Shown here piece by piece: positions 636 to 44,126 of a DNA stretch of 64,000 nucleotides. How positions within the stretch are numbered: the stretch's first letter is position 1; each line of letters starts with the position of its first letter. Source of the stretch: Dictyostelium discoideum (taxonomy: Eukaryota); NCBI GenBank assembly GCA_000004695.1, contig CM000151.3, forward strand, positions 256,001 to 320,000, in the 5' to 3' direction. The position numbers and the translations under genes were made by a program. The notes below the pieces were generated by a model, which saw only the letters and a program-made list of their open reading frames with translations, was not told the DNA's origin and searched no databases.

Positions 636-1863
636 ATGTTTAAACAAATAATTATAGTTATTAGTTTAGTTCTTTTTGCTTTTAATCAATTGGATATTGT
701 TTCAGCTTGTAGATGTGATTCAGATTGTGAAGATTGTAATGAATGTACTTTGGATACTTGCTCTCGTGGATGTTGTTCAAATGTTGAAATAGATTGTGAC
801 GATGGTAATCAATGTACTGTAGATTCATGTTCAAAAGAGACTGGTTGTGCCCATAATGATATTAATTGTGACGATGGTGATGCTTGTACTACTGATTCAT
901 GTTCCAAATTATCTGGTTGTTGTAACTTGCCAATCTCTTGTGATGATAATGATGCTTGCACAACTGATTCTTGTTTAAATTCTACCGGTTGTTCAAATTT
1001 ACTAATCTCATGTGATGATGGAAATGCTTGTACTACTGATAGTTGCTCAAAGAAAACAGGTTGTTGTAATTTATCAATCTCTTGTGATGATGGTAATGCT
1101 TGTACAACTGATGGTTGTTCAAAGGAAACTGGTTGTACTAATTCCAATATCGATTGTGACGATGATGATTCTTGTACTACTGATTCTTGTTCAAAGAAAA
1201 CTGGTTGTTCAAATTTACCAATGTCTTGTGATGATAATGATGCTTGTACTACCGATTCATGCTTAAATTCTACTGGTTGTTCAAATTTACCAATCTCTTG
1301 TGATGATAATGATACTTGTACTACTGGTTCTTGTTCAAAATCTGCTGGTTGTTGTAATTCACCAATTTCATGTGATGATGGTAATGCTTGTACTACTGAT
1401 GGTTGTTCTAAAGAGACTGGTTGTTGTAATACACCAATTACTTGTGATGATGGTGATTTGTGTACCAATGTCTTGTGATGATAATGATGCTTGTACTACC
1501 GATTCATGCTTAAATTCTACTGGTTGTTCAAATTTACCAATCTCTTGTGATGATAATGATACTTGTACTACTGATTCTTGTTCAAAATCTGCTGGTTGTT
1601 GTAATTCACCAATTTCATGTGATGATGGTAATGCTTGTACTACTGATGGTTGTTCTAAAGAGACTGGTTGTTGTAATACACCAATTACTTGTGATGATGG
1701 TGATTTGTGTACCAATGACTCTTGCTCTGAAAAAAGTGGTTGTTGTCATACTCCAGTTTCATGTGACGATGGTGAAGATTGCACAACTGACACTTGTTCA
1801 CCAAAATTAGGATGTATTCATACCTATATCACTATTCCTGAACCTCAACCTATTGATTGTTAA
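636..1863 (+). CDS. Secreted cysteine-rich protein built of ~10 tandem 24-aa (72-bp) repeats of Dicty_CTDC type (xxACTTDSCSKxTGCxNLPISCDD). Signal peptide MFKQIIIVISLVLFAFNQLDIVSA. Reading frame breaks at 1466 (frame 636..1478 continues in frame 1300..1863).
   Basis: ORFs 636..1478 and 1300..1863 encode the same repeat in two frames. The repeat architecture matches the 24-residue Cys-rich repeats of Dictyostelium extracellular matrix, stalk and spore-coat proteins (EcmA/EcmB class). Confidence 0.55.
1221..1714 (+). repeat. 247-bp direct tandem duplication (copy 1 ~1221-1467, copy 2 ~1468-1714). The period is not a multiple of 3, so it causes the frameshift in the Cys-repeat gene.
   Basis: accaATGtcttgtgatgataatgatgcttgtactaccgattcatgcttaaattc... 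recurs exactly 247 bp later. At the junction the first copy reads LPMSCDD in frame, whereas the second copy reads CTNVL-stop. Confidence 0.7.
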
Positions 1864-2016: not shown

Positions 2017-3749
2017 ATGTCAACAAGTAAAAAAATTAAAACAGATAATAATAAAATATTACAAGATGTGATTGATTATGAAATTTTAAAATCTTTAATA
2101 AATTATTTATTAATCAGCAAAAATAATAAAACAAATTATAATAATACTATTAATCAATATAAAATTAATAAATTTTATTTAAATAGAAATGAAATATTAA
2201 ATTATATATTAGTTTCAAAAAAGTGGTATAATTTTATATCATCAACAATATCAAATAATATTATTGATAATAAATCATTTGAACATTGGTTAAAAATTAA
2301 TTATAATAAAAATAAATCATTTATTGAAAATTACAATAACCAAAATCAATATGATAAAAATAATTTAATTTTTAATGACAAAGAAGATAATCAAAATAAA
2401 ATTAGTTTTAATAAAGAGTTTTCAATTATAAAAATCAAAGAATCAATAATCAATGATTATTTTAAATTCAATTTATTTTTAGATGATATTACAATTGATG
2501 ATTTTAAAGAAATTAAAAATAAATTTGAAAATAATCAATTACTTTATAATAGAATTGTAGTTAATGTTAAAACTGGTTATGAAGGGAATCAAGACGATAG
2601 TATTTTATTCGAAATACATGAATATATATCAAATGAAAATTCAGAAAACATATCAAATTTATTTAAAATATTAGAATTAAATTATAATTATTTGGAAATT
2701 GAGGGCTATAATCCAAGCTCTGAAGAAGATGATGATGAAAGTAATAAGAAATGTACTGAATTATATTTAAATAATTTATCAATTGCTGGTGTTGATAGAG
2801 ATGTAGGTGAAGATGAAGAAACAGTAAAGATATTCAAAATTTTCAAAGGTAAAAATTTAATTTATGATGGATCTGATGTTGCTTGTGATTGTCCAACACA
2901 TGTCGATTATTCAGCATTATTTGATCCAAATAATTCAGGTCAACAAGTTGAATCAATTAAAGTACAAAATAGATTAGATGGTGGTGAATATGTCGAAGCA
3001 CGTCATTTAATCAAAGTTAATCAATTTGAAAATTTACATTCAATTACAATACCAATTAATTCATTTCAAATATTATCAAACCTATCTGAAGAAATGGGAT
3101 TTAATAGTTTCTATAGTAATAGTACAGATTCAGGTAATTCAGAAAATATGAAATCCGAATTAAACCAAATGATTAATTCATTCATTACAAGTAAATCTTT
3201 AAAGAATTTAAATATATCATCCATAGAAAAAGAAGATTCAATTTATAGTGATGATTATGATGATGATGAAACTTTTGCTAATAATATTAATGAAACTATA
3301 GAATCATTTTCAAATTCATTTATACCATTATTTTCAGAATCAAATACATCAATTGAAAGAATTGAATTTGATTGTTGTGGTTTATTAAATATTAATACAT
3401 TTTCAAATTTATTAAAAAACAAATCAATTAAATATTTATATTTATATGATAATAGTGATTTCATTGTTTACTCTTCAAAACAAACTGGTCGTGGTGGTAA
3501 TGATTTACATAAAGAACCTATTTCAATTAATCAATATTTATTTGATAATATATTTTCATCGCCATTAACATCAATTAGACATTATAAAATTAATATCAAA
3601 GAATCAAATCAATTCAAATTAATATTTAATTTAATATTAAATAATATTTTTAAATTACAATTATATTCATTAATATTTGAATTAAATGAAAATGAGTTAG
3701 TTGGTGAATTTGTTAAAGAATTTAAAAATTTAATAAATAATATTTCAAT

Positions 3750-3786
<37 letters not shown>

Positions 3787-3915
3787 AAAGAATCAAATAT
3801 AAATTTAAAAGAAATTAAAATTAAAATCGGAGATGATGAATATATTCCTGAATTAAATAATATTAATAATCCATATTTCACAACAGTAATAAAGAAATTA
3901 CCAAAAAAAAATTAA
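2017..3915 (+). CDS. Tandem-family paralogue (632 aa): MSTSKKIKTDNN... protein with F-box-like N-terminus (candidate), LRR-like conserved blocks, acidic and polyQ cassettes
   Basis: Intact ORF. Conserved blocks shared with the other array members: DPxNSGQQVESIKV, EARHLIKVNQFENLHSITIPINSFQILSNLSEEMGF, NMKSELNQMINSFITSKSLKNL, SFxPLFSExNTSIERIEFDC, INTFSNLLxNKSIKYLYLY, PLTSIRHYKI, FNLILNNIFKLQLYSLIFE, NPYFTTVIKK. Confidence 0.8.
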
Positions 3916-4279: not shown

Positions 4280-6361
4280 ATGCCAAAAAATAAAAAAATA
4301 AAAACAGATAAAAATAATAAAATATTTCAAGATGTTATTGAATTTGAAATTTTAAGATCAATAATCAATTATTTATTAATCAGCAAAAAAAAAAAAAAAA
4401 ATAATAATTATAATACTAGTAGTCAATATAAAATTAATAAATTTTATTTAAATAGAAATGAAATATTAAATTATATATTAGTTTCAAAAAAGTGGTATAA
4501 TTTTATATCATTAACAATATCAAATAATATTATTAATAATAAATTATTTGAATATTGGTTAAAAATTAATTATTACAATAAATCATTTATTGAAAATTAT
4601 AATAATCAAAATAAATATGATAAATATAATTTATTTTTCAATAACATAGAAGATTGCAAAAATAAAATTAGTTTTAATAAAGAGTTTTCAATTATAAAAA
4701 TCAAAGAATCAATAATCAATGATTATTTTAAATTCAATTTATTTTCAAATCATATTACAATTGATGATTTTAAAGAAATTAAAAACAAATTTGAAAATAA
4801 TCAATTACTTTATAATAGAATTGTAGTTAATCTTGAAACTGATTATGGTAGCGATGATGATGATATTTTATTTACAATACATGAATATATATCAAATGAA
4901 AATTGGGAAATCATATCAAATTTATTTAAAATAATAGAATTAAATTTTCATTTTTGGTTAGGTGAAGGTTATCAACCAAAATCTGAGGAGGAGGAGGAGG
5001 AGGAAGAGGAGGAGGAGGAGGAAGATCATCATGATACTGATGAATGTTGTAGTCCAAAATCTGAGGAAGACGATCATGATGAACATTGTAGTCCAAAATC
5101 CAAAGAGGATGATGATCATGACGAAGGTTGTCACCCAAAATCTGAAGAGGAGGAGGAGGAGGAGGAGGATGATCTTGATGATGAAGGTAATAAGAAATGT
5201 ACTGAATTATATTTAAATAGTTTAACAGTTGTTGGGTATGATCAAGATGTAGTTGAAGATGAAGAAACAGTAAAGATATTCAAAATTTTCAAAGGTAAAA
5301 ATTTATTTTATGATGGATCTGGTGATTCAATTGATACGTATACACATGTCAATTATTCAGCATTATTTGATCCAGATAATTCAGGTCAACAAGTTGAATC
5401 AATTAATGTACAAATTGAAACTATTAATGAAGAATTCGTTGAAGCACGTCATTTAATCAAAGTTAATCAATTTGAAAATTTACATTCAATTACAATACCA
5501 ATTAGCTCTTTTCAAATATTATCAAGTTTAGCGAAAGAAATGGGATTTACTAGTTTCTATTATAATAGTAAATCAGAATTTGGTAATTCAAAAAATATGA
5601 AATCAGAATTAAATCAAATGATCAATTCATTCGTTACATGTAAATCTTTAAAGAATTTAAAAATAACATCGGTAAATTTAACAGATTATCATATCAACTA
5701 TGAAGGTTATTATGATGGAAATGGAGATCTTGAAATTTTTGCTAATAAAATAAATGAAACTATAGAATCATATTCAAATTCATTCCAACCATTATTTTCA
5801 GAATTAAATACATCAATTGAAAGAATTGAATTAGATTGTATGCGTTTATTAAATATCAATACATTTTCAAATTTATTAAATAATAAATCAATTAAATATT
5901 TATATTTGTATGGTGATAGTGATTTCATTGTTTACTCTTCAAAATCAAGTGGTTATGGTGGTGGTAGTGAATTACATGAAGAATCTATTTCAATTAATCA
6001 ATTTTTATTTGAAAATATATTTACATCACCATTAACATCAATTAGACATTATAAAATTTGTTTCAAATTATCAAATCAATTAAGATTAATATTTAATTTA
6101 ATTTTAAATAATATTTTCAAATTACAATTATATTCATTAATATTTGAATTCGATGAAAACAAATTAGTTGGCGAATTTGTTAAAGAATTTAAAAATTTAA
6201 TAAATAGTATTCCAACTCAAATACAACAAAAATCAAATAACATAAATTTAAAAGAAATTAAAATTAAAATTGAAGATGATGAATATATTCCTGAATTAAA
6301 TAATATTAATAATCCGTATTTCACAACAATAATAAAGAAAATAGAAAAAAAATATGATTAA
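4280..6361 (+). CDS. Tandem-family paralogue (~693 aa from MPKNKKIKTDKNNKIF). Carries an expanded acidic cassette with (GAG)n poly-E and His/Cys-containing repeats HDTDECCSPKSEEDDHDEHCSPKSKEDDDHDEGCHPKSEEEE.
   Basis: ORF 4178..6361, but the upstream part (MREKKKVKLSFFFF...) is poly-T low complexity. The paralogue-conserved start is ATG 4280-4282, preceded by the ...aaacaaataata motif. Confidence 0.8.
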   Translation: MPKNKKIKTDKNNKIFQDVIEFEILRSIINYLLISKKKKKNNNYNTSSQYKINKFYLNRNEILNYILVSKKWYNFISLTISNNIINNKLFEYWLKINYYNKSFIENYNNQNKYDKYNLFFNNIEDCKNKISFNKEFSIIKIKESIINDYFKFNLFSNHITIDDFKEIKNKFENNQLLYNRIVVNLETDYGSDDDDILFTIHEYISNENWEIISNLFKIIELNFHFWLGEGYQPKSEEEEEEEEEEEEEDHHDTDECCSPKSEEDDHDEHCSPKSKEDDDHDEGCHPKSEEEEEEEEDDLDDEGNKKCTELYLNSLTVVGYDQDVVEDEETVKIFKIFKGKNLFYDGSGDSIDTYTHVNYSALFDPDNSGQQVESINVQIETINEEFVEARHLIKVNQFENLHSITIPISSFQILSSLAKEMGFTSFYYNSKSEFGNSKNMKSELNQMINSFVTCKSLKNLKITSVNLTDYHINYEGYYDGNGDLEIFANKINETIESYSNSFQPLFSELNTSIERIELDCMRLLNINTFSNLLNNKSIKYLYLYGDSDFIVYSSKSSGYGGGSELHEESISINQFLFENIFTSPLTSIRHYKICFKLSNQLRLIFNLILNNIFKLQLYSLIFEFDENKLVGEFVKEFKNLINSIPTQIQQKSNNINLKEIKIKIEDDEYIPELNNINNPYFTTIIKKIEKKYD

Positions 6362-6845
6362 AAAAAAAATAAAAAATAAAAAAAAAATAAAAAAGTGAAA
6401 TAATTTTTTATTTTTATTTTTTTTTTTTAAATAAAGATGTGGTTTCTCAATATTGAGAAGTTTTTTATTTTTTTTTTGAAAATTCTTTTTTTTTTTTTCC
6501 ATTATGGGAGGTCAATTTTTTTTCCAATTTTTTTTATTTTTTTTTATTTTTTTTTTTTATTTTTTTTTTTTAAATCGAATTTTTTACTTTTTTTTTATTT
6601 TTTTCTTTATTTTTGGTAAACATAAAAAAAGAGATATCAAATAGAAAAAAAAAAAAGTTATAAAAAAAAGAGAAATTAATTGTAATCATTTATTAATTAA
6701 ACATAAAGTTATTTTTTTTTTTTTTTTTTTTTTTTTATTCCAATTAATCCCATTTTTATTTTTCATAATAATTTTTATTTCCTTTTTAAAGTCTCATAAA
6801 AAAAAAAATTTAGAATTTGTTGGTCACTCTTTATAATTTAAACAA

Positions 6846-8050
6846 AAAATAATAATAATATCAACAAGTAAAAAAATAAAAACAGATAATAAAATATTTC
6901 AAGATCTGATTGATTTTGAAATTTTAAGATCCATAACCAATTATTTATTAACTAGCAAAAAAAAAATTAATAATAATAATAATATTAATAATATTAATAA
7001 TTTAAATAATAATAATATTATTAATCAATAAAATTAATAAATTTTATTTAAATAGAAATGAAATATTAAATTATATATTAGTTTCAAAAAAGTTGTATAA
7101 TTTTATATCATTAACAATATCAAATAATATTATTAATAATAAATCATTTGAACATTGGTTAAAAACTAATTATAATAATAATAAATCATTTATTGAAAAT
7201 TATAAAAATCAAAATCAATATGATAAAAATAAAATATTTTATAGCAAAGAAGATTATAATCAATATAAAATTAGTTTTAATAAAGAGTTTTCAACTATAA
7301 AAATCAAAGAATCAATAATCAATGATTATTTTAAATTCAATTTATTTTTAGATAAGCTTACAATTGGTGATATTATAGATATTAAAAATAAATTTGAAAA
7401 TAATCAATTGGTTTATAATAGAATTGTAGTTTATATTAAAACTGATGATGATTGGTTTCCATAATGTGATAATTTATTAAAATATTTAAAATACACGAAT
7501 ATGTATCAAATGGAAATTCAGAAATCATATGAAATTTATTTCAAATATTAGAATTAAATTATGGTTTTAGGTTGCGTAATGGCTATGATCCAAATCTGAA
7601 AGGGTATATTATGATGATAAAGGTAATAAGAAATCAACTGCTGAGTTATATTTTAATAATTTATCAATTGCTGGTAATAGATTTGCAGATGAAGATAACA
7701 AAACAGTCATGGTATTCAAAATATTCAAAGGTAAAAAATTATTTTATAATAAAACTTGTAGATATAGGTCAACACATGTCAATTGTTCATCATTATTTGG
7801 TCCAGATATTTCAGGTCAACAAGTTAAATCAATTGATTTATAAATTCGGTTTGGGAATTTGTTTATGAATTTAAAAATTTAATAAATAATATTTCAATTC
7901 AACAAAAACAACAACAAGAATCAAAACATAAATTTAAAAGAAATTAAAATTAAAATTGTAGTTGATAAATATGAAAAATTTCAAGAACTAAATTATTTTA
8001 AAAATCCATATTTCGCAATAGTAATAAAGAAATTACCAAAATGGTGGTAA
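6846..8050 (+). pseudogene. Decayed copy of the tandem family: family promoter motif present but ATG mutated (ATA), multiple stops and frameshifts, internal deletions
   Basis: tcactctttataatttaaacaaaaaataataataatATCAACAAGT at ~6836. ORF 7093..7464 encodes YNFISLTISNNIINNKSFEHWLK...NRIVVYIKT. Downstream fragments GNKKSTAELYFNNLSIAG, SGQQVKSID and NPYFAIVIKKLPKWW-stop lie in shifted frames. Confidence 0.75.
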
Positions 8051-8271
8051 CCTTAAAAGATAAAAAATAAATTTCTAAAAGCTAAAGATATATTTATGAC
8101 AGACATCCCTAGGAAAATATTTACAAAAAAAAAAAAAAAATAGAAAATAATATTATAGTATATTATTATTAATTTTTACACTTAATATTATTTATTATTA
8201 ATAAAAATATTATTATTTATTTGAATTAATTTGATTTGATTTAATTTGATTTATTTTTATAATCTTTAACA

Positions 8272-9460
8272 TCAATTAGGTCCATTTGAACAAAGTCTCA
8301 TTGTTTCTTTAATAAAGGCAACGATATAAGGGGCATTTTGTTTATGATTGAAATTGACATATTCATCATCTTTGACAGCTTTTTTAATTTCTAGATATGC
8401 AATCTCTTGAGGTTCTGGACGATTACATAATTGTAAAATTACCCAATTCATTGTGATTGTAACTGTACCAATGGCTGGTCCAAAAATATCAAAACAAATT
8501 TGATTGATTTTCATTGTATCTTCTTTAGTGATTTCATTTAATCCATATTCAATTAACAAATCATCCATTAAATCTCTTGGTTTACTTGGATCAATTGACT
8601 TAAAATGATTTTCATTTTGACTACTAATTATTTGTCTAACGATATCGCAACCTTTTAATCTTCTAGTAAAGAACCAATCATAAAGTGGTGAGAAAATTTC
8701 AAAACAATCAAATGCAGTTAGTTTTGAAAGATTACCAAAAACATGTTCAACTGCATTACCAATAGTTCTTGACAAGCCACTTTCAACTGATAAATCTTGA
8801 TTAAACATATATTTGAATAACATTGAACAAGCATATCCTTGAATATGTCCTTTTGGATAAAACTTAAAATAATTATTTAATAAATTAATATTAATAATTT
8901 TAATTGTAATTATTATTTCTTTAAAAAAAAACCTATAATTTCATTATTATTCGAAATTTTTTCAAGTGAATCAATAAATTCAATTGCTTTTTCTTCCATT
9001 AATTTTTTAGATGTATGAACTCTTAATTATTAAGAAACACTTGATTTTGCTCTTTTCCATTCGTCATCAGATGAGCTCATTACACCTAATCCATTACTTG
9101 AAGCATATCTCCAACCTGGAACTAAAAGTGATGGTTTGTAAAGGAAATTTTCATCTTTTTGAAAATACTTTACATCATAATTTGAGACAAATAAAAATAA
9201 TCTTTCTCCAATCCATGCTCTTACAATTAATTCATGTTCTTGAATTTTGAATAATTCCCAAAATCTAATTTGAACAACATTTCCAAGAATAGGAAATGCA
9301 ATTGGTCCACTTGGAGATTTTGTATGAATTTTCTTATTTTTTTTAACCTTTTTTTTTTTTGTAAAGAATTAATTAATTAATTTTAATTATTTCTAAAATA
9401 TATAAAATTAAATACATACAAAATCTTTTACCAAGAAAAGTATAATTAGAATAATAAAAC
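8272..9460 (-). pseudogene. Cytochrome P450 remnant. N-terminal anchor and Pro-rich hinge (PSGPIAFPILGN), WKRAK motif, I-helix-like GPAIGTVTIT and K-helix ETMRL are present. In-frame TAATAA (plus 9036-9041) sits after ...KSSVS. No PERF or heme-binding Cys region is present before the gene ends at 8272.
   Basis: Minus-strand translation of 9340..9040 gives KNKKIHTKSPSGPIAFPILGNVVQIRFWELFKIQEHELIVRAWIGERLFLFVSNYDVKYFQKDENFLYKPSLLVPGWRYASSNGLGVMSSSDDEWKRAKSSVS. ORF 8272..8823 gives ...DIFGPAIGTVTITMNWVILQLCNRPEPQE...VAFIKETMRLCSNGPN-stop. Introns with GT..AG at 8863-8932. Only AT-rich non-coding DNA follows until the family pseudogene at 8050. Confidence 0.6.
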
Positions 9461-10129
9461 ATTAACTATTTCCATTTCTCTTAATAATATAGTATTACTT
9501 TTTTTTTTTTTTCTTAACAATTTTTTTTTTTTTTTTCAAATATACTTAACAACAATTTTTTTTAAATGGAAGGTTTATTTTTGTTTTTATCTTTTATTTA
9601 TTTTTTTATTTTTTTATTTTTTATGAATTAATCACCAACAATTAATTGGTGAGTCGATTAATTAAAAGATCAATTACAGGTAAAAAAAGATAATCTGAAA
9701 AATAAAAAAATTTTAAGTGGTTCAATCACAAATTTTATTACTAAAAAAAAAATTAAAAAAAGTTAAACCTTTTTTTGACTTTTTATAAAAAACAAAAATG
9801 ATATTATAAAAAAGGTGTGGGTAATTAATTTAAATTAAAAAAACTAAAAAAAAAAACAAAAAATAAAAAAAACAAAAATAAAAAAAAACAAAAAATAAAA
9901 AAAAACAAATTTTACCCCAAAATTAAGATCTTACAAGTGGTGCATTCCAATAAAATTTTTTTTTTTTTTTTTTTTTTGAATGATTATCTGTTGGCAATTG
10001 TCAAAATTTTTATTAAATGGTGGTTATTTAATTTAAAGGAAAAAATAAAATAAAATAGATAAAATAAAAAATGGTGGTTATTTAATTTAAAGGTAAAAAA
10101 AAATATTACTTAATTAAATATTTCGAAAG

Positions 10130-10160
<31 letters not shown>

Positions 10161-10224
10161 CTTAATTAAATAATTCATTTCAATAGTTACAAGTTTTATA
10201 ATAAATATATAATTGAAATCTAAA

Positions 10225-13200
10225 ATGATTGAAGGAAATTTTGAAAAAAACAATGATAACCAAGTTGCAATAATTGGTCTTGGGCTAAGATTACCAGGTA
10301 ACTCGGGATCTCCTTTAGAGTTTTGGAAAAACTTGCTTGGTGGTTTTGATGGAATTGTTGATTCTAATGAAAGGTAAAAAAAAAAAAAAAAATTTAAAAA
10401 ATAAATAAATAAAAAATTAGAATTATAAAAAAAAAAATAAAAATAAAAAAAAAAATAAAAATAAAAATAAAAAAAAGTGATGGCGACTCACCTCTAACAC
10501 ACCATATTTTTTTTTATTTTAATTTTTTTCTTTTTTTTCATTTTCATCACCGTTGTCTTCATTTTTTTTTTTTTTTTTTAAATTATTATTTTTATTTATT
10601 TAGATGGAGCGACACATTCCATAGTATGGGAGAAATCTCAAATAAGAATGCAGGATTAATTGACTTGGAAGAGAATTGGCATTCTTTTGAGCCATTGTTT
10701 TTTGGGATCAATCCAACCGATGCTAAACAAATTGATCCACAAATTAAATTAATGTTAAAGTTAACATGGGAAGCATTTGAAGATGCATCAATTGATCCTT
10801 TAAAACTCAGAGGAACAAATACTTCTGTTTTTGTTGGTGCCGCAAATACTGATTATTCTTTTATTAATTTCGAATAAAATGAAGCGCCAATCAATGTTTT
10901 TAATGGTACTCTCAGCGCATTTGCAAATAGAATATCATATTGTTTTGATTTACGTGGTACTTCATTAACAATTGACACTGCATGTTCATCATCATTAAAT
11001 GCAGTTCATTTAGGATATGAATCAATTGTTAATGGTAAATCAAATTACTCTGTAGTAGCTGGTTGTAATATATTATTAAGTAATTATTATTATAATATTA
11101 GTAGCACACACATATATATAAAATAGTTTTCATATTTCTAATATTTTATTTTTATTATTATTATTATTCTAAAAAAAGATCCATATATTACTAGATCATT
11201 TCATTCAATTAATATTACAGGTAAATCTGGTAGATGTAATTCATTTGATGAATCTGCTGATGGTTTTGTACGTTCAGAAGGTGTTGTTGTATTAATTTTA
11301 AAAAGATTATCACTTGCAATTCAAGATAACGATCAAATTTATTGTGTAATGAAAGGAAGTAGTTCAAATGTAGATGGTACTTTTAAGAAAACAAACTTTT
11401 TTGCACCTTCAAAAAGTGCACAATCAACTAATATCAAAAATGCATTTTTATCATCTAATGGTGCAGTGAAATATCAAGATATTGATTTCTTTGAATTACA
11501 TAGTACAGGTACACAAGTAGGTGATCCAATCGAAGTTGAAGCTGTTGCTGATATTTTTAAAAATGTTAAACAAGAACCATTATTAATTGGATCAGTTAAA
11601 TCAAATATTGGTCATCTTGAACCTGCATCAGGTGTAGCATCATTAGCAAAAGTTTGTTTAATGTTTAAACATCGTCAATTTGTAAAGAATATCCATTTCA
11701 ATAACCCAAATCCAAATATTAAATTCAAAGAATGGAATGTTAAAGTATGCACAGAAACAACAGCATTCCCAGATAGACAAGTATCAATGGCAATCAATAG
11801 TTTTGGTATAACTGGTTCAAATGCATGTGTTTTATTGTCTGAATATATTAAACCTTCAGAATTAAAAAATCAAACATCCATGAAATTAAATGAAAAATCA
11901 AAATTATTAATACCAATATCAACCAACTCAAAGAAGTCACTCGAACAATTCAAATCAAAACTACTTGAAGAAATTGATACATACTCTGAAAGCTTAACTT
12001 TTGAAGAGTTTGCAATGTTCCAAGTTTATTCAAAAACAACCAAATTATCACAAAGATCAGTTTTAATTGGTAATGATTGGAATGATTTAAAAATTAATAT
12101 AAATGAAATTATTTCAACAAAAAATAATAAATCTGGTAATATTATCAAATCAAATGATATTAATCCACCATTAGTATTTTCATTTTGTGGTCAAGGTCCT
12201 CAATATTCAAAAATGGGTTTAGATTTATATGAAAATGAACCAATATTTAAACAATATATGGATTTATTAGATTCAATACTATTTAAATATTATGGATATT
12301 CAATCATTCAAAAACTAAGATCAATTAATGATGATCCAATTCTAATTAATGAACCAATATTAGCTCAACCATCTATATTTATGATTCAAATATCATTATA
12401 TAAATTATATTTGCATTGGGGAATCACACCATCAATAATAGTTGGCCATAGTTTAGGAGAAGTAGCCAGTGCATTTTGTTCAGGTATGATTGATTTAGAA
12501 ACAGCATGCTTCGTGATATATAAAAGAGCAATCATTCAAAATAAAACCAATGGATCTGGAAGACTTTTAGCAATTGGTTTAAATCTTGAAGAATTCTATA
12601 ATCAATTTTCAAAGGAATATCCAGAAATTGAAATTTCATGTTTTAACTCACCATCATCAATCGTTGTATGTGGTAATGAACATGATATATTAAATATTTC
12701 AAAATCATTAAAAGAGAAACAAATATTCAACTCTTTATTAGGTACACCATCAGCATTTCATTCATCAAAACAAGATATAATCAAAGATGAAATTATAGAA
12801 TCAACCAATCATATCCGATCAAGACCACCTTCTATAACAACATTTTCAACAGTCACATCAAATAAATTCGATAAAAATACACCTTATAATTCAAATTATA
12901 TATTTGACAATTTAAGAAAGCCAGTATTATTTCAACAAACCATTGAAAACATATTCAAACATATTGAATCAAATGATTTAGGTAATTCAGTAATATTTTT
13001 AGAATTGTCACCTCATCCAACTTTAAACCATTATGTTAAAGAAATGATTCCAAAGAATTCAAATTACTTTTTAAACAAAGATTCAATAAGTGTATTATCA
13101 TCAATAAATAAGAAAAAAGAAGATATCAACGAAATTCAATCAACAATTTCACAACTTTATTGTTTTGGTTACAATGTCGATTTTAGTGCCCAATTTAAAT

Positions 13201-16200
13201 CGGAAATAACATCAAATTCATTCAAGAAATGCTCATACATAATACCACATTATCAATGGGATGAATCATTATTTTGGAAAGAAGGTATTTCATCAATAAA
13301 TAATAGAAAGAATGGAGTATCAATAAATCAACTTGGTAATAAAAATGAATCATCACCACATATATCATATACATCATATATCGATATTAAAGAAGAACCA
13401 TTTAGATTCTTAAAAGATCATCAATTTCGTGGTAAATCAATTTTCCCAGGAGTTGGTTATTTGGATATTATTTTAAAACTTTTCCCAAATCAAGATTTAA
13501 CCATACCACTTTTAGAATTTAAATCACAATTTATATTATCTGAAGGTGTAAAAAAAACTCTTACAACCAATCTCTACAAAAGTGCAAAGAATGAATATAG
13601 AGCAACATTTAATTTTAAAGATCAAACAAGTGGTAAGTGGGTTCAATCTGCAAATAGTAGAATTTTAATGAAAAGTTTAGATGTAACAGTTAAAAAAGTT
13701 GATATTCAATCAATACGTGATCAATGTAATTGGTCAACTTTGAAAAGAGATCAATTATATAACTCAATTAAAAACTATTCAAACATTTCAATATTAGAAT
13801 CATTTCAAAGAATTGAAGAAGCTTCATATGGTGATAATAGATGCCTGTGTAAAATTTCATTGGATCCAACTTCAAGCTATGATAATGAATCATTTTTAAA
13901 TATTTGCATTATTGATACATGTATACATCCATGTATTTTCTTTGATAACCCAGCTTCGTCTGTTTTTGAAAGAATTGAACATTTAAAAATTTATTCTTCA
14001 AGTGTTCCATTAACTGCAGAAGATAGAGTGAAGCAACAATACGTTTACTGTTATGTTGAACTTATTAAACAATTTAGTGATTTTATGTATTTAAAAACAA
14101 CTTGTTTCTTAAAAGATGGTACTGTTCTATTACATTCTCCATTGGTAACAATTGCATCTACACTATCAACAAAAAATGAAATTGATATTGAATGTCCAAA
14201 CAATCAATTATTTTCACAATGTCTTCAACCAAAAGATTCAATTTTACAATCACCATTAATATTGAAAGAATATTTTAATCAACAACTTCAACTTCAACAA
14301 TCAAATATCATTTCAATATCTACTCTATCATCATATCTTTTTTCCACATTAAAGAAAATATTAAATAACCTCACCATTGATGAATTTCAAAATGATTCAC
14401 TTGAACAGTTGATTGAAAAATATTCATATATCTTGGAAGAAGTTCAAGAAGTTGGTACTATCAGATCCAATTTAATCCTCTTAACAATCAACTTTTTATT
14501 AACACATCACAAACATATTGATCAAAACCAAGTTTCAAACTTTCTCTTGAATAACATTCCAAACGAATTATTAGTTGTTGATAATATTGTTTCAAATAAA
14601 GGTATTTCACATATTGGTATTTATCAACATCAATTAATTTTAGATATAATTTCAAAATCAATTATTCCAATCGTAAATGAAAAAATAGTTTTTAGAATTT
14701 TAGAAATTGGATGTGGTGTTGGTGAATTAACTAAACTAATCAATGATAAATTAGAATCAATTTTAAATGATAATCCATCATATAACATTGATATAGAATT
14801 TGTATTTTCAGATTATACCGATTCAAAAGTATTATTAATTAAAGAAAGATTGTTCAGTTCAAAAAAGAGTTGTTTCTTTAAAATTATTGATTTAAACAAA
14901 CAATTACAAGAACAATCATTTTCACCATCTTATTATGATTTAATTATTCTATCAAATACAACAAATCAAATTAAAGATATCAACACATCAATTTCATTTG
15001 TAAATGAAATTTTAACTCCAAACGGTCATTTATTAATTTTAGATACAAATTTCATTCAAACATCAATAGATGAAGATTATTATTTAGAAAACTACAAACA
15101 ATGGTTATCATTTAATTATTTAAATTCTGGTAGTGGTGCAATGAAACTAAATCAATGGAATCAATTATTAATAAATGATTTGAAATTTAATAATTTCATA
15201 TGTTCAACAGGTGAAATTGAACCATATTTGATTCAAGTTCAAAAATCAAATTTATCAAATTCAATTAATTCAGTTAGTAAAGAGCATACATCAGAATATG
15301 ATCAAATTATAATTTTTGGTACTTGTGATGAAATTAATATTGGATCTTCTTTCTATGGCTTGGTTCCAATAGCAATAAATTCAATTGATAAGTTTAAAGA
15401 ACATGTCAAATTACAACAATTAACTGATAAATCATTAATATTATTTATTGAATCATTAAATCTATTAACAGTTGATAATTTTAATCAAGTCTCAATGAAC
15501 TATATAGAAATCAATCAACATTTATTAAAAAATGAAATTTCAGGTTGTAAACATATTTTAATTTCAAGAAATGTAAACTTTGAAACTTCAAACTTATTTG
15601 GATCATCATTAATTGGTTCATTTAGATACTTTTGTGAATTCAATCAATTAAATATATATTCATTTGAATTTGAAGGTAATAATATCCTTAGTGGTGATAA
15701 ATTATTTAATATTATTCAAGAATTATCAAATTCAAGCAAACATTCACAAAATGAATTTTCAATCAGAAGTGATGGTAAAATTTATTATGAAAGAATTAAA
15801 TTAGAATCAAATTTAAAATTAAAATATAAATCAAAATCATATATTGAAAATAAAAATGAATTAGTTTCAAGATTAAAACCAGATTTAACATTTGCATTAG
15901 AAGCGGTATTACCATTGAATCCAAATTTTGTTGAAGTTAAAGTAATGGCAAGTGGTGTTAATTTTAAAGATTTCTTAGTTTATCGTCAATTAATTAATAT
16001 GGCAAATTCAAATGAAAATGGTGATCCTTCAAAACCACAATTTGGATATGAACTAAGTGGAATCGTTACCAAAGTCGGTAAGAATGTGACCAAATTCAAA
16101 GTTGGTGATCATGTAATGGGAGGTGCTTTTCATACATTTTCATCAAGTGTTCATGTAGATCAAGAAAGAATCGAATTAAAACCATCAAACATTTCTTGGT

Positions 16201-17016
16201 TTGAAGCATCACACTCTTTAGTTTATTTAACTTCATATTGTAGTTTATTCGAACTTGGTAGATTGGATTTATATGGTTCAAGTGAAACAGTTTTAATTCA
16301 TTCAGGAAGTGGTGGTATTGGTTTATCTTGTATCGATTTATTACAAGTATATGGATTTAAAGGATATTTATTTGTAACTGTAGGCTCTGAAGAAAAGAAA
16401 CAATTTTTAAAAGATCGTTATGGTGATTTCATCACAGAGATTTATTCAACTAAAAATACAGACTATGAATATTTAATTAAAGAGAAATTAATTGAATTAA
16501 AAGCACCATCTCAAAAATATGGTAGTTTTTCAATGATTTGTGTGGATTTAATTATAAATACTTTATCAGCAGATTATATGTCCTGAATTTTCAAATAATC
16601 ACAACTTTATCCATCGTTCGTCAAATTATAAAATTCATCAAGATACTTTAGGTAAAACAATATTAATAACAGGTCAAGCAGGTCTTTCAGATACAATCAT
16701 AAAATGGATAAGAGAAAAAAGATCAGATTCTATTGAATCAATAATAGTATTATCAAAATCACCAATTAAATTTGAATTAGAAAGAGCAATTGGTAGAATA
16801 AGATCAACAAATTTGAAAATCTATTTTAAACAAGTTGATATTTCAGATGAAAAACTTTTATTAAAATCAATTAATCAATTATTTGAAGAAAATAAAAATA
16901 TTAAACCAATTGAATCAATATTCCATAATGCATTTTCACCAGCAGAATGTGAACCATTAGAAATTGATATGAATCATTTAATTATTGGTTTGATTAAAAA
17001 AAAAAAAAATGAATGA
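10225..17016 (+). pseudogene. Type I iterative polyketide synthase (Dictyostelium pks family), domain order KS-AT-DH-cMT-ER-KR(partial). Three lesions: in-frame TAA at 10875-10877 inside KS; frame change near 16580-16590 between ER and KR; KR truncated at 17016 with no ACP, immediately upstream of the transposon at 17116.
   Basis: Exon 1 10225..10373 ([30 protein letters not shown]...). Intron 10374..10603 (GTAAAA..TTTAG). Exon 2 10604..11079 with KS active site TIDTACSSSL. Intron 11080..11178 (GTAATT..AAAG). Exon 3 11179..16586. AT domain GHSLGE at ~12444. DH motif HQFRGKSIFPGVGYLD at ~13417. Methyltransferase LEIGCGVGELT at ~14700. ER KVMASGVNFKD at ~15940. KR Rossmann motif TILITGQAGLSD at ~16660, in the +1 frame. 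...DYSFINFE-TAA-NEAPINVFNGTLSAFANRISYCFDLRG is continuous KS sequence across the stop. Confidence 0.6.
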
Positions 17017-17115
17017 TCACATCCATTTTTTTTTTTTATATTTTATATTATTTTGTGCAAAATAAAAAAATAAAAAAATACACAAAAAACATATTCCCAA
17101 AAATTCAAATTTGCT

Positions 17116-17245
17116 GTTGTAGGGAATTTTCAATAAAATTTCACTGCCCAGCCAAAAAAAATTTAGGGTCAGTGATTTTTTTTTTTTCACTGTGAAATTA
17201 TCAAAATCACTGACCCTAAATTTTTTTTTTTTTCAAAAAACAAAT
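17116..17245. repeat. Left terminal inverted repeat of the transposon at 17116..19590
   Basis: Matches 55694..55820 in direct orientation and 19480..19590 and 60945..61054 in inverted orientation. Confidence 0.6.
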
Positions 17246-17306
17246 AAAGTTTGTTATTTTTTTGTTTTTAATTATTAATTCCTATTTTAATGGTTAATTA
17301 TTATAA

Positions 17307-17338
<32 letters not shown>

Positions 17339-18712
17339 TTTTTTCTCATTTTTTTTTTCTTTTTTTTTTATTTTCATATTTTCATTTTAGGACAACAAAT
17401 TATCAAACATTAAAGAAATCTAAAACTTCAGAATATTTATCATTTGAAAATAATTTAATTTAAAAGAAATGTGAAGAGTTTATATTATTTGTTATTAATG
17501 AATTACCAAAATTAAAATACTTAATTGGGTATTAATTTCAAAAGATGAAAGAACAAAAGCAGCAAAATTAGATAGTGAAGGTTTCTTTCAAAACAATTCT
17601 AAGTGTTACTCCAGTTGTTATCAATAATAAAAAATAAATAATAATAATAATGTGATATCATCAGCTCAATCTTCACTATCATTAAGTAGTGCATCAACAC
17701 CAATTCCAACTCCATTAAATACTAGTAGTAATAATATTGGTGGTAATACTACTACAAGTGTATCAGTGGGATAATCCCCAACAATTAGGGGTATACCATC
17801 ATCACCAGATCAACAAGTTTTATTCAACGCAAACCATCAGTCGGTGCAATATGATGCCAAAATTAAATTCTTCTTTGAATTGATCAACTGATTTCCTTGG
17901 TAAAGAAAGAGAAAATCATCAATCATCTTCACCTTCATATTCATCATTATCAATATCATCATCATCACAACAGCAACATAATAGTAACAATCATCCAAAA
18001 TCGATTGATGAAGCACCTGAAGTATTATCACCATTTGATATTTTACAATCAAAAGTTAATGCAGAGAATTCTTTATCTTCATCACAAGATTTAAATCAAC
18101 ATAATGTAACAACGGCTAGTCAAATTTTACAAGAAATTAAACCAACTAAAGAATTAACTAAACAAGAAACTGAAGCATGCAATTCCAGAGGAACCAATTG
18201 AAGAATGTAATAAATCAACTACAACCACTGCAATTAAGATCATCTTCTTCATCTTCTTCATCTTCTACAACAACAACAAAAACAACAACAACATCACCAC
18301 CACCACAACAACAATTAGATTCGCCATTACCATTACCAGTTAATATTATTAATATGCCAATGGATGATGATGAACTTATTAGTGATGGTACAATAAGTGG
18401 TGCTTAAACTAATGATGGTATCAATTATTGTACCATCATTAGTTAAAGAATCATCAAGAGAATCATTATTGGCTACAACTATTGATAATTCAACATTATC
18501 AACTACACCATCACCATCTCCAAAATTACCAACTCTTGAAACTGCTAAACCATTGTTACATCATCATCTTCTTCTTCTTCAAACACCACTACTCAAACTA
18601 ATAAAGTTTCTGGTGGTTCTGCTAAAGAAATTTGGACTAAAATTGATCAAAATACTGCACCATCAACTCCATCTAAAATTTTACCAAAAAGATTACCTTC
18701 TCAATCAAATCT

Positions 18713-18713
<1 letters not shown>

Positions 18714-18774
<61 letters not shown>

Positions 18775-18778
18775 TAAT
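18714..18778 (+). repeat. (AAT)n microsatellite, ~20 units
   Basis: Direct read. Inside the transposon at 17116..19590. Confidence 0.9.
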
Positions 18779-19342
18779 TAATTAAATAAATAAACAAAAA
18801 GAATAAATAAATAAAAACAATAAATAAAAAAAAAGATAATAAAATAAAACTACAATCTTAATTGAAAAAATAAATAAATAAATAAATAAATAAAATAAAT
18901 AAATAAAATAAAACTAGTTTTAATAAATCTAAAACTTTGTAAATATGTTTTGAAAAAAAAAAAAAAATTTTTATTTTATTGTTTAACTAAATTTGGTTTA
19001 AAATTCAAATAAAGAACTATCTACTCTAAAAAAGAAACCCTTTTCAAATGATAATTGTTGAACACCATTTCTACAATCACTACCGTCATGAGTAGAAAAT
19101 TACCATTTAAACTAAATTGAATAAATCCACTCGATAACCTGTTGGAAATTAGCTACTTGATGTTTTTTAATTATTATTTATTGTTTATTTGTTTATTTGT
19201 CTATTTATTTATTCATTTATTTATTCATTTATTTATTCATTTATATATTCATTCACTAATAATATTACCTACTTTAAAATTGAAAAAATGAAAATGAAAA
19301 AAAAAAAAAAAAAATTGAAAAAAATTGAAAAAAAAAAAATTG

Positions 19343-19391
<49 letters not shown>

Positions 19392-19479
19392 TCCCCATAT
19401 TTTTAATATTAAATAAAATAATAATTAAACCCAAAAATAAAATTCCCATTTAATAAACTTTATTTGTTTTTTGAAAAAA

Positions 19480-19590
19480 AAAAAAAATTTAAGGGCAGTG
19501 ATTTTTTTTTTCACTGCACAACTGTAGTGAAATTAAATAATAAAATTCACTGCGCTGGGCAGTGAAATTTTATTGAAAATTCCCTACAAC
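19480..19590. repeat. Right terminal inverted repeat of the transposon at 17116..19590
   Basis: Reverse complement of 17116..17245. Ends ...ttccctacaac. Confidence 0.6.
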
Positions 19591-19866
19591 AAAATAAATT
19601 TTTTGCTACCTCTAGTTTTTTTTAATCTATAATAAAAATATAAATATCCAAAATTATTAATTGAAATTTAATTGATTTTTAAATTGACAAAAGAAAAAAA
19701 AAACCGATATCTTGGACATCCAAGACAAAATTTTTTTTTTTTTTTAATTTTTTAATTTTTTTTCTTTTTTATTTTCTGCTTTTTTTTTTTTTTTTTTTCT
19801 TTTAAACAAAAAAACATAAATAAAAATAAAAAATAATAAATAACAAATAAATAATAAACAATTATA

Positions 19867-22800
19867 ATGAATAATGAATATAATGAAATATTATTTTGGA
19901 AAGTTTTTAAAAATAAATATTTATTAAATTATATATTAAAAAATAAATGTTGTCGTAAAAGTAAAAAATTTAAAAATATCACATCAGTAGATTCAATGTT
20001 AAAACATAAATTATATCAACTTTTGATATGTAAATTAAAAGCAGATGAAAATTTAAAATTTAAACATAGAAATTATAAAATCATGAATGAAATAAAAGAT
20101 ATAGAAGTATTCAAAGAGATATATTCATTATTACTTTTTAAAGGTTACCAAGGCTCTGAGGTTTTATTCGAAAAGATTTGGGGTATAAAATCAGTAGATT
20201 TATTTGATTTTCATATAAAATATCATCCAGAAGTATTTCAAACCTATATAGATCTTAAAATACACTCAATCTTCATATATAATCATCCAAAATTAATAAT
20301 AAAGGTTTTAAAATTTTTAGAAGAGTCCATCAATCATAATAAACCATTTACTTTTACCAAAATTGAAAGAAATTTTATCATTATGGAATATTTATATTAT
20401 AAACAACACCGATGCAATAGTGAAGAATTTAAAGAAAAGATGGAAATAATATCTAATATTCCAATATCTTCAACCTCAATACTTCAAAATTCATTTTCAA
20501 GTTCAGATAATAGTGTGGATGTAAATTGGTATCTAAAAAATAAAAAATTAATACCTTTTGGATTTAATAATATTCAAACATCATTTCATTGCTCTAAAGA
20601 AACTTTAAGATATTATTTCTCTCGTATTGGCGAGAAGAGAGATAAAGATATTCAACAATCTGTTTATTGCAAAAATAATTTAAGAATGTTTTCAAACTTT
20701 TGTTCTGACTTTGATTTTGCTATTTCCGACATCTATGAATGTATCTCTTCATCTATCAATTCAGTTTTATTATATTTTAAATTGTATTATTGCAACTATC
20801 ATGAATTTAGTAAATCAAAAAGTATACCAACATCGATTCAAACTCAAATTGATATAATAATTGGAAATAGTAAACATAGTGATTATAATGAATATCAATC
20901 AATTAAACAATTATTTCAACTATTTATTAATGAAACTAAATCTAATGTTTTATATGCATGGTATTTAAAAGAATATAATGAACCAATTGACACCATTCGA
21001 CTCTGTGAAAAAATTAAACTATTGTTAATATATTTTATGGCAAAAACCTATAGCACCAATATATTAAAGTTTCTATTGAAAAAACATGTAAAAATCAATA
21101 TAACAAAATCAGATTTGGACTATATTGGTGAAACATATCTCAACACTTTATTCAAAAGTAATCAAATAGATAATAACAATATTATTATGTTCTATAAAAT
21201 CTATTCCACACAAAAATCAATCATTATAGAAGATATTGAAGAAAAACCATTAGATGATGTAATATCAACAAAGGAACTTATCGATTTGCCTGAAAAACAA
21301 TTTCAATTAATTCTATTATCGAAATGGAAAGAAATTACATCAAATCTAATTGATAATGATATGATTGTTACAATTAAAGATAAAGAAACAATCGATTGGT
21401 TATCAGATATCGAAACAGGTGGTTGTAGTATTTTAAAAATAAGAAATGCTTTAAATTCAAAATTAAATCAAATGAAACTTGATTTTAGTACATCAGAATT
21501 ATTAGAATATGCAAGAATCAAATTTAAACGAGTAATTCCAATTTTAGATTCAAATAAACAGTTGTGTAATATTCACATTTTACGTACTCATGATGATATT
21601 GTATCATTAATCAATCGATTAAACCAATCAAACTTTAATGATAATGAAGATTTATTTAAATATTATATGATTCAAATTATTCAATTTGGTTCAAAAAATT
21701 CAATTAAATACCTAAGATTAATTTGTGATTCTATTGATGGGTTATTGTTGGACTATCTTGATTGGGGGGTTTTAGTAATGAGAATATTTAATTACGATTT
21801 GAGACTGTTTTATATTAACTCATATATATATGATATTTGGGATGTTTCGGCAGGTTATCATGAAAATGAAAAATTCAAACAATATAAAATACCAACTCAA
21901 CAAACATGTCAAATAATCAATCTCACTAAAATTAAAGTAAATTTCAATAACTTTCCAAATGTAACCTCTTATTTATTTCAAACATTTATTGAACTTTTAA
22001 ATTTTGAAGGTGTACAATTTATTCTTGATAATTTAAATGGTAAAGATTTAAAATTACATGAAAAAGCATTTAAAGATCGTTTTGATCATAGAATCTATAC
22101 ATGCAAATATTTATATAAAGATTTAATTGATATTATTCAGTTTTTAATTGATAGATTCAAAGATGGTCAATTATCATTATCAAATTTATCATTGATATTA
22201 AATTTCTTTTATTTAAAGTTAATTAGAGTCAATAATTTAACAATTGACCAAATTAAAACAGCTCATCAATTAATATCAAATTATATCAAAATAAAGAGTT
22301 CAAAATACACTTCATACTATTATTTAAAAACTTTTTCACCAATCATCGGATCATGTGTAGTCGTTATTGAAGTTCCCTGTGGTAGTTCTTTAAAAGAACC
22401 ATTCTTGAAATATTATATAAATACATCAGTATATACATTCGAATATATATTTACTGATAGAAATAATAAAGATTTAAATCAATTTATCGATTCAACAATC
22501 ATGGACATTGTAAAAGATAACTTTAATATCCAAGTCTCCAAGATGTTAGATTATAATAATCCAAGAGTTAATTTATTTTTACATTATTTCGAAATTGAAT
22601 TAAAATTTAGAAAGGAAAATAAAATCAAAAAACCATTTTTAAAATACCAACTATTGAAATTAATAATTAAAACATTTGATTTAGAATCATTTATTAAATT
22701 AGATAATTTATTACAACAATATGAACAAGAGGATGCTAATGATGATGGTGGACATGAAAATATAATAGGATCTATAGATAAATATAGATCCTATAGATAT

Positions 22801-23157: not shown

Positions 23158-23447
23158 TTTGTTTTTTTTTTTATTTTTATTTTTTTTTTTCTAAGTATGT
23201 TGTTATAAAAGTGTAGTGTTCATATTTATTTTAATTTCTCTTTTTTTTTTGGTGTACACCAAAAAAATAATATAAAGAAATAATAATGTTAACAAAAAAT
23301 AAAAATAAATATTTCAAGATATTATTTTTTTGAAATTTTAAAATCCATGTGTTTTTATTTTTTTTTGTTTTTTTATTTTTTTTTTTTTTAAGTTTTAAAT
23401 ATTTTCATTTTTTTAACTCATTAGTCAGCTCACTCTTACAAATAATT

Positions 23448-25436
23448 ATGTCAACAAATAAAAAATTTAAAAAATATAATAATAAAATATTTCAAGATGT
23501 TATTGATTTTGAAATTTTAAGATCTATAATCAATTATTTATTAACCAGCAACACAAATAAAAAAAATAATAATAATAATTACAACACTAGTAATCAATAT
23601 AAAATTAATAAATTTTATTTAAATGGAAATGAAATATTAAATTATACATTAGTTTCAAAAAAGTGGTATAATTTTATATCATTAACAATATCAAATAATA
23701 TTATTAATAATAAATTATTTGAACATTGGTTAAAAATTAATTATAATAATAATAATAATTATAATATTATTAATAATAAATCATTTGATAATTGGTTAAA
23801 AATTTATAATAATAATAATAATAAATCATTTATTGAAAACTATAATAATCGAAATCAATATGATAAAAATAATTTATTTTTAAAAAGTGCTAAACAAAAT
23901 AAAATTAGCCAATTTAAAATTAGTTTCAATAAAGAGTTTTCAATTATAAAAATCAAAGAATCAATAATTAATGATTATTTTAAATTCAATTTATTTTTAG
24001 ATTATATTACAATTGATGATTTTAAAGAAATTAAAAAGAAATTTGAAAATAATCAATTACTTTATAATAGAATTGTAATTGATATTAATATTGGAAATGG
24101 TTATGATGATTATAGTTCAAACCAAAGTGATATTATATTTAAAATACATGAATATATATCAAATGAAAATTTAGAGACTATATCAAATTTATTTAAAATA
24201 TTAGAATTAAATTATGTTTATTTGGAAATTGGGGATTATATTCCAAAATCCCCTGAAAAGGGCAAAAGTAATAATAAGAAATGTACCGAAATGTATTTTA
24301 AAAGTTTATCAGTTGATGGTTTATATGAGAACGAAGAAACAGTAAAGATATTCAAAATTTTCAAAGGTAAAAATGTAATATTTCATGGTCCAACACATGC
24401 CGACTCACCATTATTTGACCCAGATAATTCAGGTCAACAAGTTGAATCATTTAAAGTACAAACTGATTTATTCGGATCTTTTGTTGAAGCACGTCATCTA
24501 ATCAAAAGTAATCAATTTGAAAATTTACATTCAATTTCAATAAAAATTAATTCATTTCAAATATTATCAAATATATCTGAAGAAATGGGATCTTATAGAT
24601 TCTATAATAATCATAATTATAAAAATGATCCACCAGATTCGAAAAATATGAAATCAGAATTAAATCAAATGATTAACTCATTCATTACAAGTAAATCTTT
24701 AAAGAATTTAAAAATAACAGCCAATAATACTACACACTATTCAATTGAATATGATGCTTGCTATATTGGAGGTGATCATGAAACTTTTGCAAATAAAATA
24801 AATGAAAATATAGAATCATATTCAAATTCATTTAAACCATTATTTTCAGAATTAAATACATCAATTGAAAGAATTGAATTAAATTGTTGTGGTTTATTAA
24901 ATATCAATACATTTTCAAATTTATTAAATAATAAATCAATTAAATATCTATATTTATACGGTGATAGTGATTTCATTGTTTACTCATCAAAACAAAATGG
25001 TGGTAATAGTGGTGGTGGTGATGGTGTATTACATAAAGAATCTATTTCAATTAATCAGTATTTATTTGATAATATATTTACATCACCATTAACATCAATT
25101 AGACATTATAGAATTAAATTCAAAGAATCAAATCAATTAAAATTAATATTTAATTTAATATTTAATAATATTTTTAAATTACAATTGTATTCATTAATAT
25201 TTAAAATTTATAAAAACGAATTAGTTGGTGAATTTGTTAAAGAATTTAAAAATTTAATAAATAATATTTCAACACAACAAGATCAACAACAAAAATTAAA
25301 TAACATATATTTAAAAGAAATTAAAATAAAAATTGAAGATGATAAATATATTCAAGAATTAAATAATATTAAAAATCCATATTTCACAACAGTAATAAAG
25401 AAATTACCAAAAAGGTTGTGTACACTTAAAAGATAA
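23448..25436 (+). CDS. Tandem-family paralogue (~663 aa from MSTNKKFKKYNNKIF)
   Basis: ORF 23349..25436. The paralogue-conserved ATG is at 23448, preceded by tcagctcactcttacaaataatt. All conserved blocks are present. Gly-rich cassette NGGNSGGGDGVLHKE. Confidence 0.8.
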   Translation: MSTNKKFKKYNNKIFQDVIDFEILRSIINYLLTSNTNKKNNNNNYNTSNQYKINKFYLNGNEILNYTLVSKKWYNFISLTISNNIINNKLFEHWLKINYNNNNNYNIINNKSFDNWLKIYNNNNNKSFIENYNNRNQYDKNNLFLKSAKQNKISQFKISFNKEFSIIKIKESIINDYFKFNLFLDYITIDDFKEIKKKFENNQLLYNRIVIDINIGNGYDDYSSNQSDIIFKIHEYISNENLETISNLFKILELNYVYLEIGDYIPKSPEKGKSNNKKCTEMYFKSLSVDGLYENEETVKIFKIFKGKNVIFHGPTHADSPLFDPDNSGQQVESFKVQTDLFGSFVEARHLIKSNQFENLHSISIKINSFQILSNISEEMGSYRFYNNHNYKNDPPDSKNMKSELNQMINSFITSKSLKNLKITANNTTHYSIEYDACYIGGDHETFANKINENIESYSNSFKPLFSELNTSIERIELNCCGLLNINTFSNLLNNKSIKYLYLYGDSDFIVYSSKQNGGNSGGGDGVLHKESISINQYLFDNIFTSPLTSIRHYRIKFKESNQLKLIFNLIFNNIFKLQLYSLIFKIYKNELVGEFVKEFKNLINNISTQQDQQQKLNNIYLKEIKIKIEDDKYIQELNNIKNPYFTTVIKKLPKRLCTLKR

Positions 25437-44050: not shown

Positions 44051-44126
<76 letters not shown>

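Follow-up and report, generated by a model that had tools for sequence, protein, structure and literature searches.

A 3'-truncated CYP517A pseudogene beside a PKS remnant on chromosome 2 of Dictyostelium discoideum, and its source unit on chromosome 4

The CYP517A subfamily and the identity of the chromosome-2 copy

The closest intact relatives of the cytochrome P450 described here are CYP517A4 (DDB_G0283933, Q54QD0) and CYP517A1 (DDB_G0283929, Q54QD2), both encoded on chromosome 4 of D. discoideum. In the chromosome-4 unit, a PKS of 2499 amino acids and a CYP517A gene are transcribed divergently; the tandem order is pks22-cyp517A1-pks23-cyp517A4, followed by an SDR and a Sec1 gene. Supplementary file 2 of PMC6524965, an inventory of CYP genes, records CYP517A3P, under the number DDB_G0271224, as "pseudogene", and this is the only CYP517A pseudogene in it. 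The table gives no lesion map for CYP517A3P and names no source unit. Literature searches with CYP517A, the DDB_G numbers and pks22/23 returned nothing further than this supplementary table of the eLife article. Five PKS pseudogenes have been reported for D. discoideum and are described as reading frames interrupted by a stop codon (PMC9618038).

The locus lies in a window of 64,000 nucleotides (the whole stretch of DNA that was analysed), with a base composition of 21% G+C. Six open reading frames of the window match proteins of AX4 chromosome 2 with 100% identity (DDB_G0271214, DDB_G0271406, DDB_G0271408, DDB_G0271412, DDB_G0271418, and DDB_G0271424), and a seventh matches DDB_G0271202 with 96% identity, the gaps lying in the annotated model, which is shorter. 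The number DDB_G0271224 falls among those of the window genes, for example DDB_G0271202 and DDB_G0271214. Judged from this neighbourhood of gene numbers and from its place as the sole listed CYP517A pseudogene, DDB_G0271224 is very likely the gene studied here; the published entry and the window copy are both AX4 pseudogenes of the CYP517A subfamily, with no known difference between them. We therefore hold with high confidence that the feature is the annotated CYP517A3P of AX4 chromosome 2, a functionless, non-processed, duplicated pseudogene. Because it stands in a published inventory under the numbering of this region, the pseudogene was already known and its detection here is a rediscovery. 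CYP517A3P is an ordinary, already catalogued dead gene copy, of little significance past annotation hygiene; this analysis adds a map of its lesions at base level, the source unit on chromosome 4, and evidence for recent inactivation.

The P450 was first recognized from the sequence alone, and the original prediction of an N-terminal P450 part on the minus strand is borne out by two methods. The conceptual translation matches the Pfam p450 profile (PF00067, E=1.3e-34, 120 bits, profile positions 1-336 of 462), and residues 1-361 of 483 are aligned when intact relatives serve as tblastn queries (E=1e-179). The predicted extent of 9460-8272 was right at its lower end, where the frame closes, and too short at the other, where the start codon lies beyond 9460 (Table 1). 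The hinge PSGPIAFPILGN, WKRAK, and ETMRL, all named in advance, are found in the translation, and ETMR supplies the K-helix ExxR at codons 353-356 (window ~8307-8296, minus strand). By the nomenclature rule for P450s, members of a subfamily share more than 55% amino-acid identity. After repair of the frameshift, the stops and the splice site, the translation is 97.1% identical to AX4 CYP517A4 and 94.0% to CYP517A1 over 350 aligned residues, which places it within CYP517A. The proposed check had asked for the closest intact paralogue and the missing part; these are CYP517A4 and codons 362-483.

Table 1. Positions in the window of the P450 and PKS remnants, their lesions, and the flanking features
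Feature	Position	Strand	Basis or remark
Tandem-array genes, examples	2017-3915, 4280-6361, 23349-25436, 26899-28827, 32473-34452		
Tandem-array genes, more examples	38765-40618, 41663-43516, 43937-45916 (-), 53490-55472, 61314-63032		
Tandem-array family pseudogene	6885-8041	+	residues 12-344 and 588-655 of a 659-aa member, frames 3/1/3/2/1/2
AT-rich spacer between P450 end and family pseudogene	8072-8280	.	~210 bp
CYP517A3P	8281-9475	-	codons 1-361 of a 483-codon CYP517A P450; Pfam, tblastn, DNA alignment to intact paralogue
Start ATG	9475-9473	-	
Exon 1	9475-9420	-	alignment to intact paralogue
Intron 1, intact	9419-9348	-	72 nt; alignment
Exon 2	9347-8937	-	alignment
Intron 2	8936-8863	-	74 nt; alignment
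Exon 3	8862-8281	-	alignment
1-bp deletion in T run, codon 9	9446-9452	-	between 9452 and 9451; TAA at 9448-9446
30-bp in-frame deletion junction	9226-9227	-	codons 60-70, GNYSKKYNGV lost; tblastn and alignment
3-bp in-frame deletion junction	9174-9175	-	one Val of DVVKYF lost; tblastn and alignment
TAATAA	9027-9032	-	CAA to TAA (codon 136), TCA to TAA (codon 137); alignment
Intron-2 donor, GT to AT	8935-8936	-	acceptor AG 8864-8863 intact; alignment
P450 breakpoint	8272-8281	-	CYP517A homology stops after codon 361 (GGA, 8283-8281); TGA at 8274-8272
Divergent intergenic (promoter) region, P450/PKS	9476-10224	.	co-duplicated, well conserved relative to chromosome-4 unit
PKS pseudogene, paralogue of pks22/pks23	10225-16984	+	homology to chromosome-4 PKS
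PKS nonsense codon TAA, exon 2	10875-10877	+	
PKS 9-nt in-frame deletion	near 15691	+	
PKS 332-bp frameshifting deletion	16579/16580	+	

Lesions of the P450 and of the adjacent PKS

Lesions were mapped against the intact paralogue of a closely related strain (L004, gene 6001-7604, exons 6001-6057/6131-6574/6654-7604), in an alignment of the window copy, this paralogue, the second chromosome-4 copy and the D. citrinum orthologue. Relative to the two chromosome-4 copies and the D. citrinum orthologue, the window copy carries six lesions in total. The tandem stops and the truncation had been predicted; the frameshift, the 30-bp deletion, the 3-bp deletion, and the change of the GT donor to AT are four more. 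The 1-bp deletion at codon 9 shifts the frame into a TAA, and the translation around it switches frame between MEIVNVLLF and LIILFLVKDF. TAATAA does consist of two consecutive in-frame stops, as had been read, at 9032-9027 rather than at 9036-9041, and both intact paralogues as well as D. citrinum have CAA TCA at codons 136-137. Beyond the breakpoint, the frame continues as CCT AAT TGA and ends.

The 122 codons that are lost (362-483) would have encoded the heme-ligand cysteine and the PERF-type motif, two regions whose absence had been noted from the start. This absence extends to the whole window. Residues 362-483 gave only chance matches in tblastn against the 64 kb, and word-7 blastn with the missing 3' coding part returned nothing other than AT-rich noise resembling 3'-UTR sequence. 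A downstream exon encoding FxxGxRxCxG and spliced over the family pseudogene had been named as the observation that would overturn the truncation; the motif scan of all six frames over 64 kb gave none of P450 context, its single match being unrelated and of low complexity (46440, plus strand). As a result of the codon-9 frameshift, the two adjacent nonsense codons, the dead intron-2 donor, and the 122-codon loss, no enzyme can be made from this P450.

One supposed sign of decay proved to be none. The I-helix had been described as having its acid/alcohol pair replaced by Val and Ile, a reading that was out of register. When aligned with CYP2C5, AGTETT pairs with PAVGTV, and so Gly occupies the acid position, while the conserved Thr is still in place. 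The PAVGTV motif is common to every intact CYP517A, including those of other species, and is accordingly a family trait and not a product of decay.

The P450 shares a divergent upstream region of ~750 bp with a PKS remnant. This remnant is ~96% identical at the DNA level to the chromosome-4 PKS of the related strain, and at 90% identity the protein of that PKS clusters with AX4 pks22 (DDB_G0284001) and pks23 (DDB_G0283931). A stop codon interrupts its frame, as in the PKS pseudogenes of PMC9618038; unlike pks22 and pks23, it is truncated at 16984 and has suffered the 332-bp deletion. Since homology stops at 16984, the last 242 residues are gone, which comprise part of the KR and the whole ACP. 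Given the nonsense codon, the frameshifting deletion, and the loss of the ACP and part of the KR, the PKS copy is dead as well. In PKS exon 3, ~1800 codons are still open, in a genome of 79% A+T.

An independent assembly from a near-identical strain (L006) is 99.7% identical over window 9836-32984 and reproduces the PKS nonsense codon, the junction of the 332-bp deletion, and the 3' break exactly. Because it begins at window 9836, this assembly confirms the lesions of the PKS and not those of the P450. That second fact is the one point in favour of a functional P450, in which the apparent lesions would be errors of sequencing or would be circumvented by splicing to a remote 3' exon, and such a gene is very improbable. 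The lesions are six and independent, a codon-9 frameshift and a dead splice donor among them; the heme loop and the 3' coding sequence occur nowhere in the 64 kb on either strand; the lesions of the adjacent PKS are exactly repeated in an independent assembly; and the locus is curated as a pseudogene. The open frame and usable splice sites of a working gene are absent from the window P450, and so is the heme-ligand loop (FxxGxRxCxG), which reads FGVGQRACPG in CYP517A4.

Origin from the chromosome-4 unit and time of inactivation

With 96-98% identity to the chromosome-4 unit and the same divergent layout, the 8.7-kb block at 8281-16984 is a copy of pks22/23-cyp517A1/A4 made at the DNA level. 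The window P450 has the intron positions of CYP517A4 and CYP517A1 and, like them, is paired divergently with a PKS (of 2499 amino acids on chromosome 4). It differs from both in the loss of codons 362-483 and in its frameshift, two stops, two in-frame deletions, and dead donor, and also in its surroundings: the chromosome-4 genes adjoin SDR and Sec1 genes, whereas the window copy sits inside an unrelated chromosome-2 gene array. The original prediction of a dead, 3'-truncated P450 between a family pseudogene and a broken PKS therefore stands, but the resident secondary-metabolism neighbourhood that it envisaged gives way to a single 8.7-kb copy of a chromosome-4 unit.

Since both introns, the promoter, and the PKS were duplicated together, the block is a DNA-level duplicate and not a retrocopy. 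That the P450 is a processed (retrotransposed) pseudogene is hardly credible, as both introns (72 and 74 nt) stand at their ancestral positions and the copy also includes the promoter, with 750 bp from upstream of the parent gene, and the divergent PKS. The locus shows what is expected of a duplicated pseudogene, namely parental introns and flanking DNA, an existing intact paralogue, and disabling lesions.

The age of the copy was estimated from the PKS. Among the sites derived relative to D. citrinum, 417 are common to the three D. discoideum copies, against 15, 9, and 9 that support one or another of the possible pairings, which indicates that the copy arose after the D. citrinum split and at approximately the time when the chromosome-4 units diverged from each other. 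Some gene conversion has possibly occurred among the copies. The branches of the D. discoideum copies are of similar length, ~1%. Simple dN/dS values were 0.47 for the pseudogene branch and 0.30 and 0.57 for the paralogues; this measure was replaced by a randomisation matched to the observed mutation spectrum. By the latter method, 28 of the 71 substitutions on the pseudogene branch are synonymous, where 17.7 would be expected under neutrality (P ~0.003), and the functional branch is comparable, with 22 of 54 against 14.6 expected. Taken together, the synonymous excess, the long open stretch of PKS codons and the ~1% branches point to constraint at the protein level over much of the history of this lineage and to a recent death, and we infer that inactivation was recent.

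Under the proposed mechanism, the unit (PKS and CYP517A transcribed away from a shared promoter) would have been copied from chromosome 4 to chromosome 2 after the D. citrinum split, around the time of the divergence between the two chromosome-4 units, and the copied PKS and P450 would have been inactivated recently. Among P450 and PKS homologues from more diverged strains, no gene model corresponds to the chromosome-2 copy.

Two histories of the block are about equally likely, each with slightly less than an even chance. According to the first, a complete, working PKS/CYP517A pair existed on chromosome 2 and was later cut at both outer ends and struck by point lesions. Its promoter and introns are intact, and the excess of synonymous changes (28/71 against 17.7), similar to that of the functional branch (22/54), suggests that the proteins were constrained for much of the time, although this constraint could equally date from the donor's time in the chromosome-4 tandem cluster. 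The decay of the PKS/CYP517A unit at the chromosome-4 site in other strains also agrees with erosion in place. On the other hand, two independent deletions are required, each ending within a coding region; there is no nearby remnant of either 3' end; and neither gene is interrupted by transposon or array sequence.

According to the second history, only an 8.7-kb fragment, from the middle of the P450 to near the 3' end of the PKS, was copied fairly recently, and the point lesions followed. Both block ends, 8281 and 16984, lie within coding sequence and both flanks are unrelated to the donor locus with its SDR and Sec1 genes, which suggests that a fragment alone was copied and was dead on arrival. 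The youth of the block, with its ~1% branch divergence and long open PKS frame, fits as well. Neutral-looking changes would, however, be expected of a block that had been dead since divergence, and the observed changes are not neutral. In view of the constraint signal, copying of a fragment therefore needs a working donor that had diverged from the sampled chromosome-4 copies beforehand, that is, a donor unit unsampled or since lost. It is also a point against this history that the block ends show neither target-site duplication nor microhomology. The earlier picture of a once-working pair that decayed is thus compatible with the synonymous excess, which agrees just as well with late copying of part of a working donor unit.

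It is unlikely, though conceivable, that the block is more than an inert relic, either through a promoter that still transcribes or through gene conversion with the chromosome-4 units. If the putative promoter were active, transcripts could arise such as one for a truncated KS-AT-DH-MT-ER polypeptide, or non-coding RNAs. If gene conversion took place, the block would be a reservoir of variation for a PKS-P450 unit whose copies are rapidly born and lost across the lineages of D. discoideum. With its link to chromosome 4, the lesion map shows neatly how a biosynthetic unit of two genes turns over by birth and death in social amoebae. The junction of the 30-bp deletion and the TAATAA can further serve as markers that separate this copy from its 97%-identical working relatives, both in the assignment of RNA-seq reads and in CRISPR design.

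The same unit was also observed in other assemblies. In strain ACTFIT, the CYP517A proteins of chromosome 4 (L001 10001-11610, L004 6001-7604) are reciprocal chimeras of AX4 CYP517A1 and CYP517A4, each with an N-terminal part that corresponds to one AX4 protein and a C-terminal tail that corresponds to its partner. Such a pattern indicates that the tandem units exchanged sequence, by gene conversion or crossing-over, or that the AX4 assembly contains a swap. The site beside the SDR and Sec1 genes holds decayed PKS/CYP517A copies in ACTFIW (L002 5059-11611) and ACTFIY (L003 2536-10792). The P450 models are 445 amino acids long in the former, with frame changes, and 235 in the latter; the PKS is split into 1259 and 1183 amino acids in ACTFIW and cut to 1835 in ACTFIY. 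The unit seems to be dispensable and repeatedly lost. In D. citrinum (L005 2854-12783), the same divergent P450/PKS pair is flanked by an MFS transporter on one side and by alpha/beta-hydrolase and SIR2 genes on the other. This different neighbourhood implies that the unit has moved as a block more than once.

Flanking sequences and the tandem array

Past the end of the P450 lie an AT-rich spacer and then a decayed family copy, in the order that had been described, so that family pseudogene, P450, and PKS form three pseudogenes in a row. The family pseudogene has lost ~245 residues internally; its nucleotide homology extends over ~6706-8071 and both of its own ends are kept. We considered whether the PKS/P450 block had split a gene of the array family, and rejected this candidate, because the family pseudogene has both termini and 16900-19900 is without family homology. 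The spacer at 8072-8280 has no homology to the 3' part of the P450 or to the remaining window, and no tRNA gene or transposon-type domain was found beside either end of the block. The suggestion that the expanding array and transposons had eroded the locus thus finds no support: the family pseudogene is not interrupted by the block, the spacer has no match, and neither tRNA genes nor transposon-type domains were found at the breakpoints.

Beyond the PKS break, the open reading frames at 16985-19866 and the large ones nearby contain no Pfam domain, and the inverted repeats consist mostly of poly-A/T runs. Directly past the PKS 3' breakpoint, a repeat of ~300 bp occurs in inverted orientation at 17115-17386 and 19262-19599, flanking 17.4-19.3 kb, and it recurs at 55685-55979 and 60712-61055. 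This repeat could be a small mobile element, or simply array spacer that is repeated. A palindrome of 18 bp lies near 17163-17220 (TTTAGGGTCAGTGATTTT ... AAAATCACTGACCCTAAA).

The array itself extends over window 2017-63032 and comprises at least 11 intact genes, each with a single exon and a product of 570-690 amino acids. In one homologue search, the family was found in Dictyostelium only, and it has no Pfam domain. The array copies are 62-72% identical to one another, and those that were compared reach no more than 64-87% identity to their best matches in other assemblies of the D. discoideum group, which suggests that the family turns over very fast. In addition, an open reading frame of 280 amino acids at 636-1478 (plus strand) begins with a signal-peptide-like sequence and carries nine CTDC cysteine-rich repeats (PF00526, E=2e-73).
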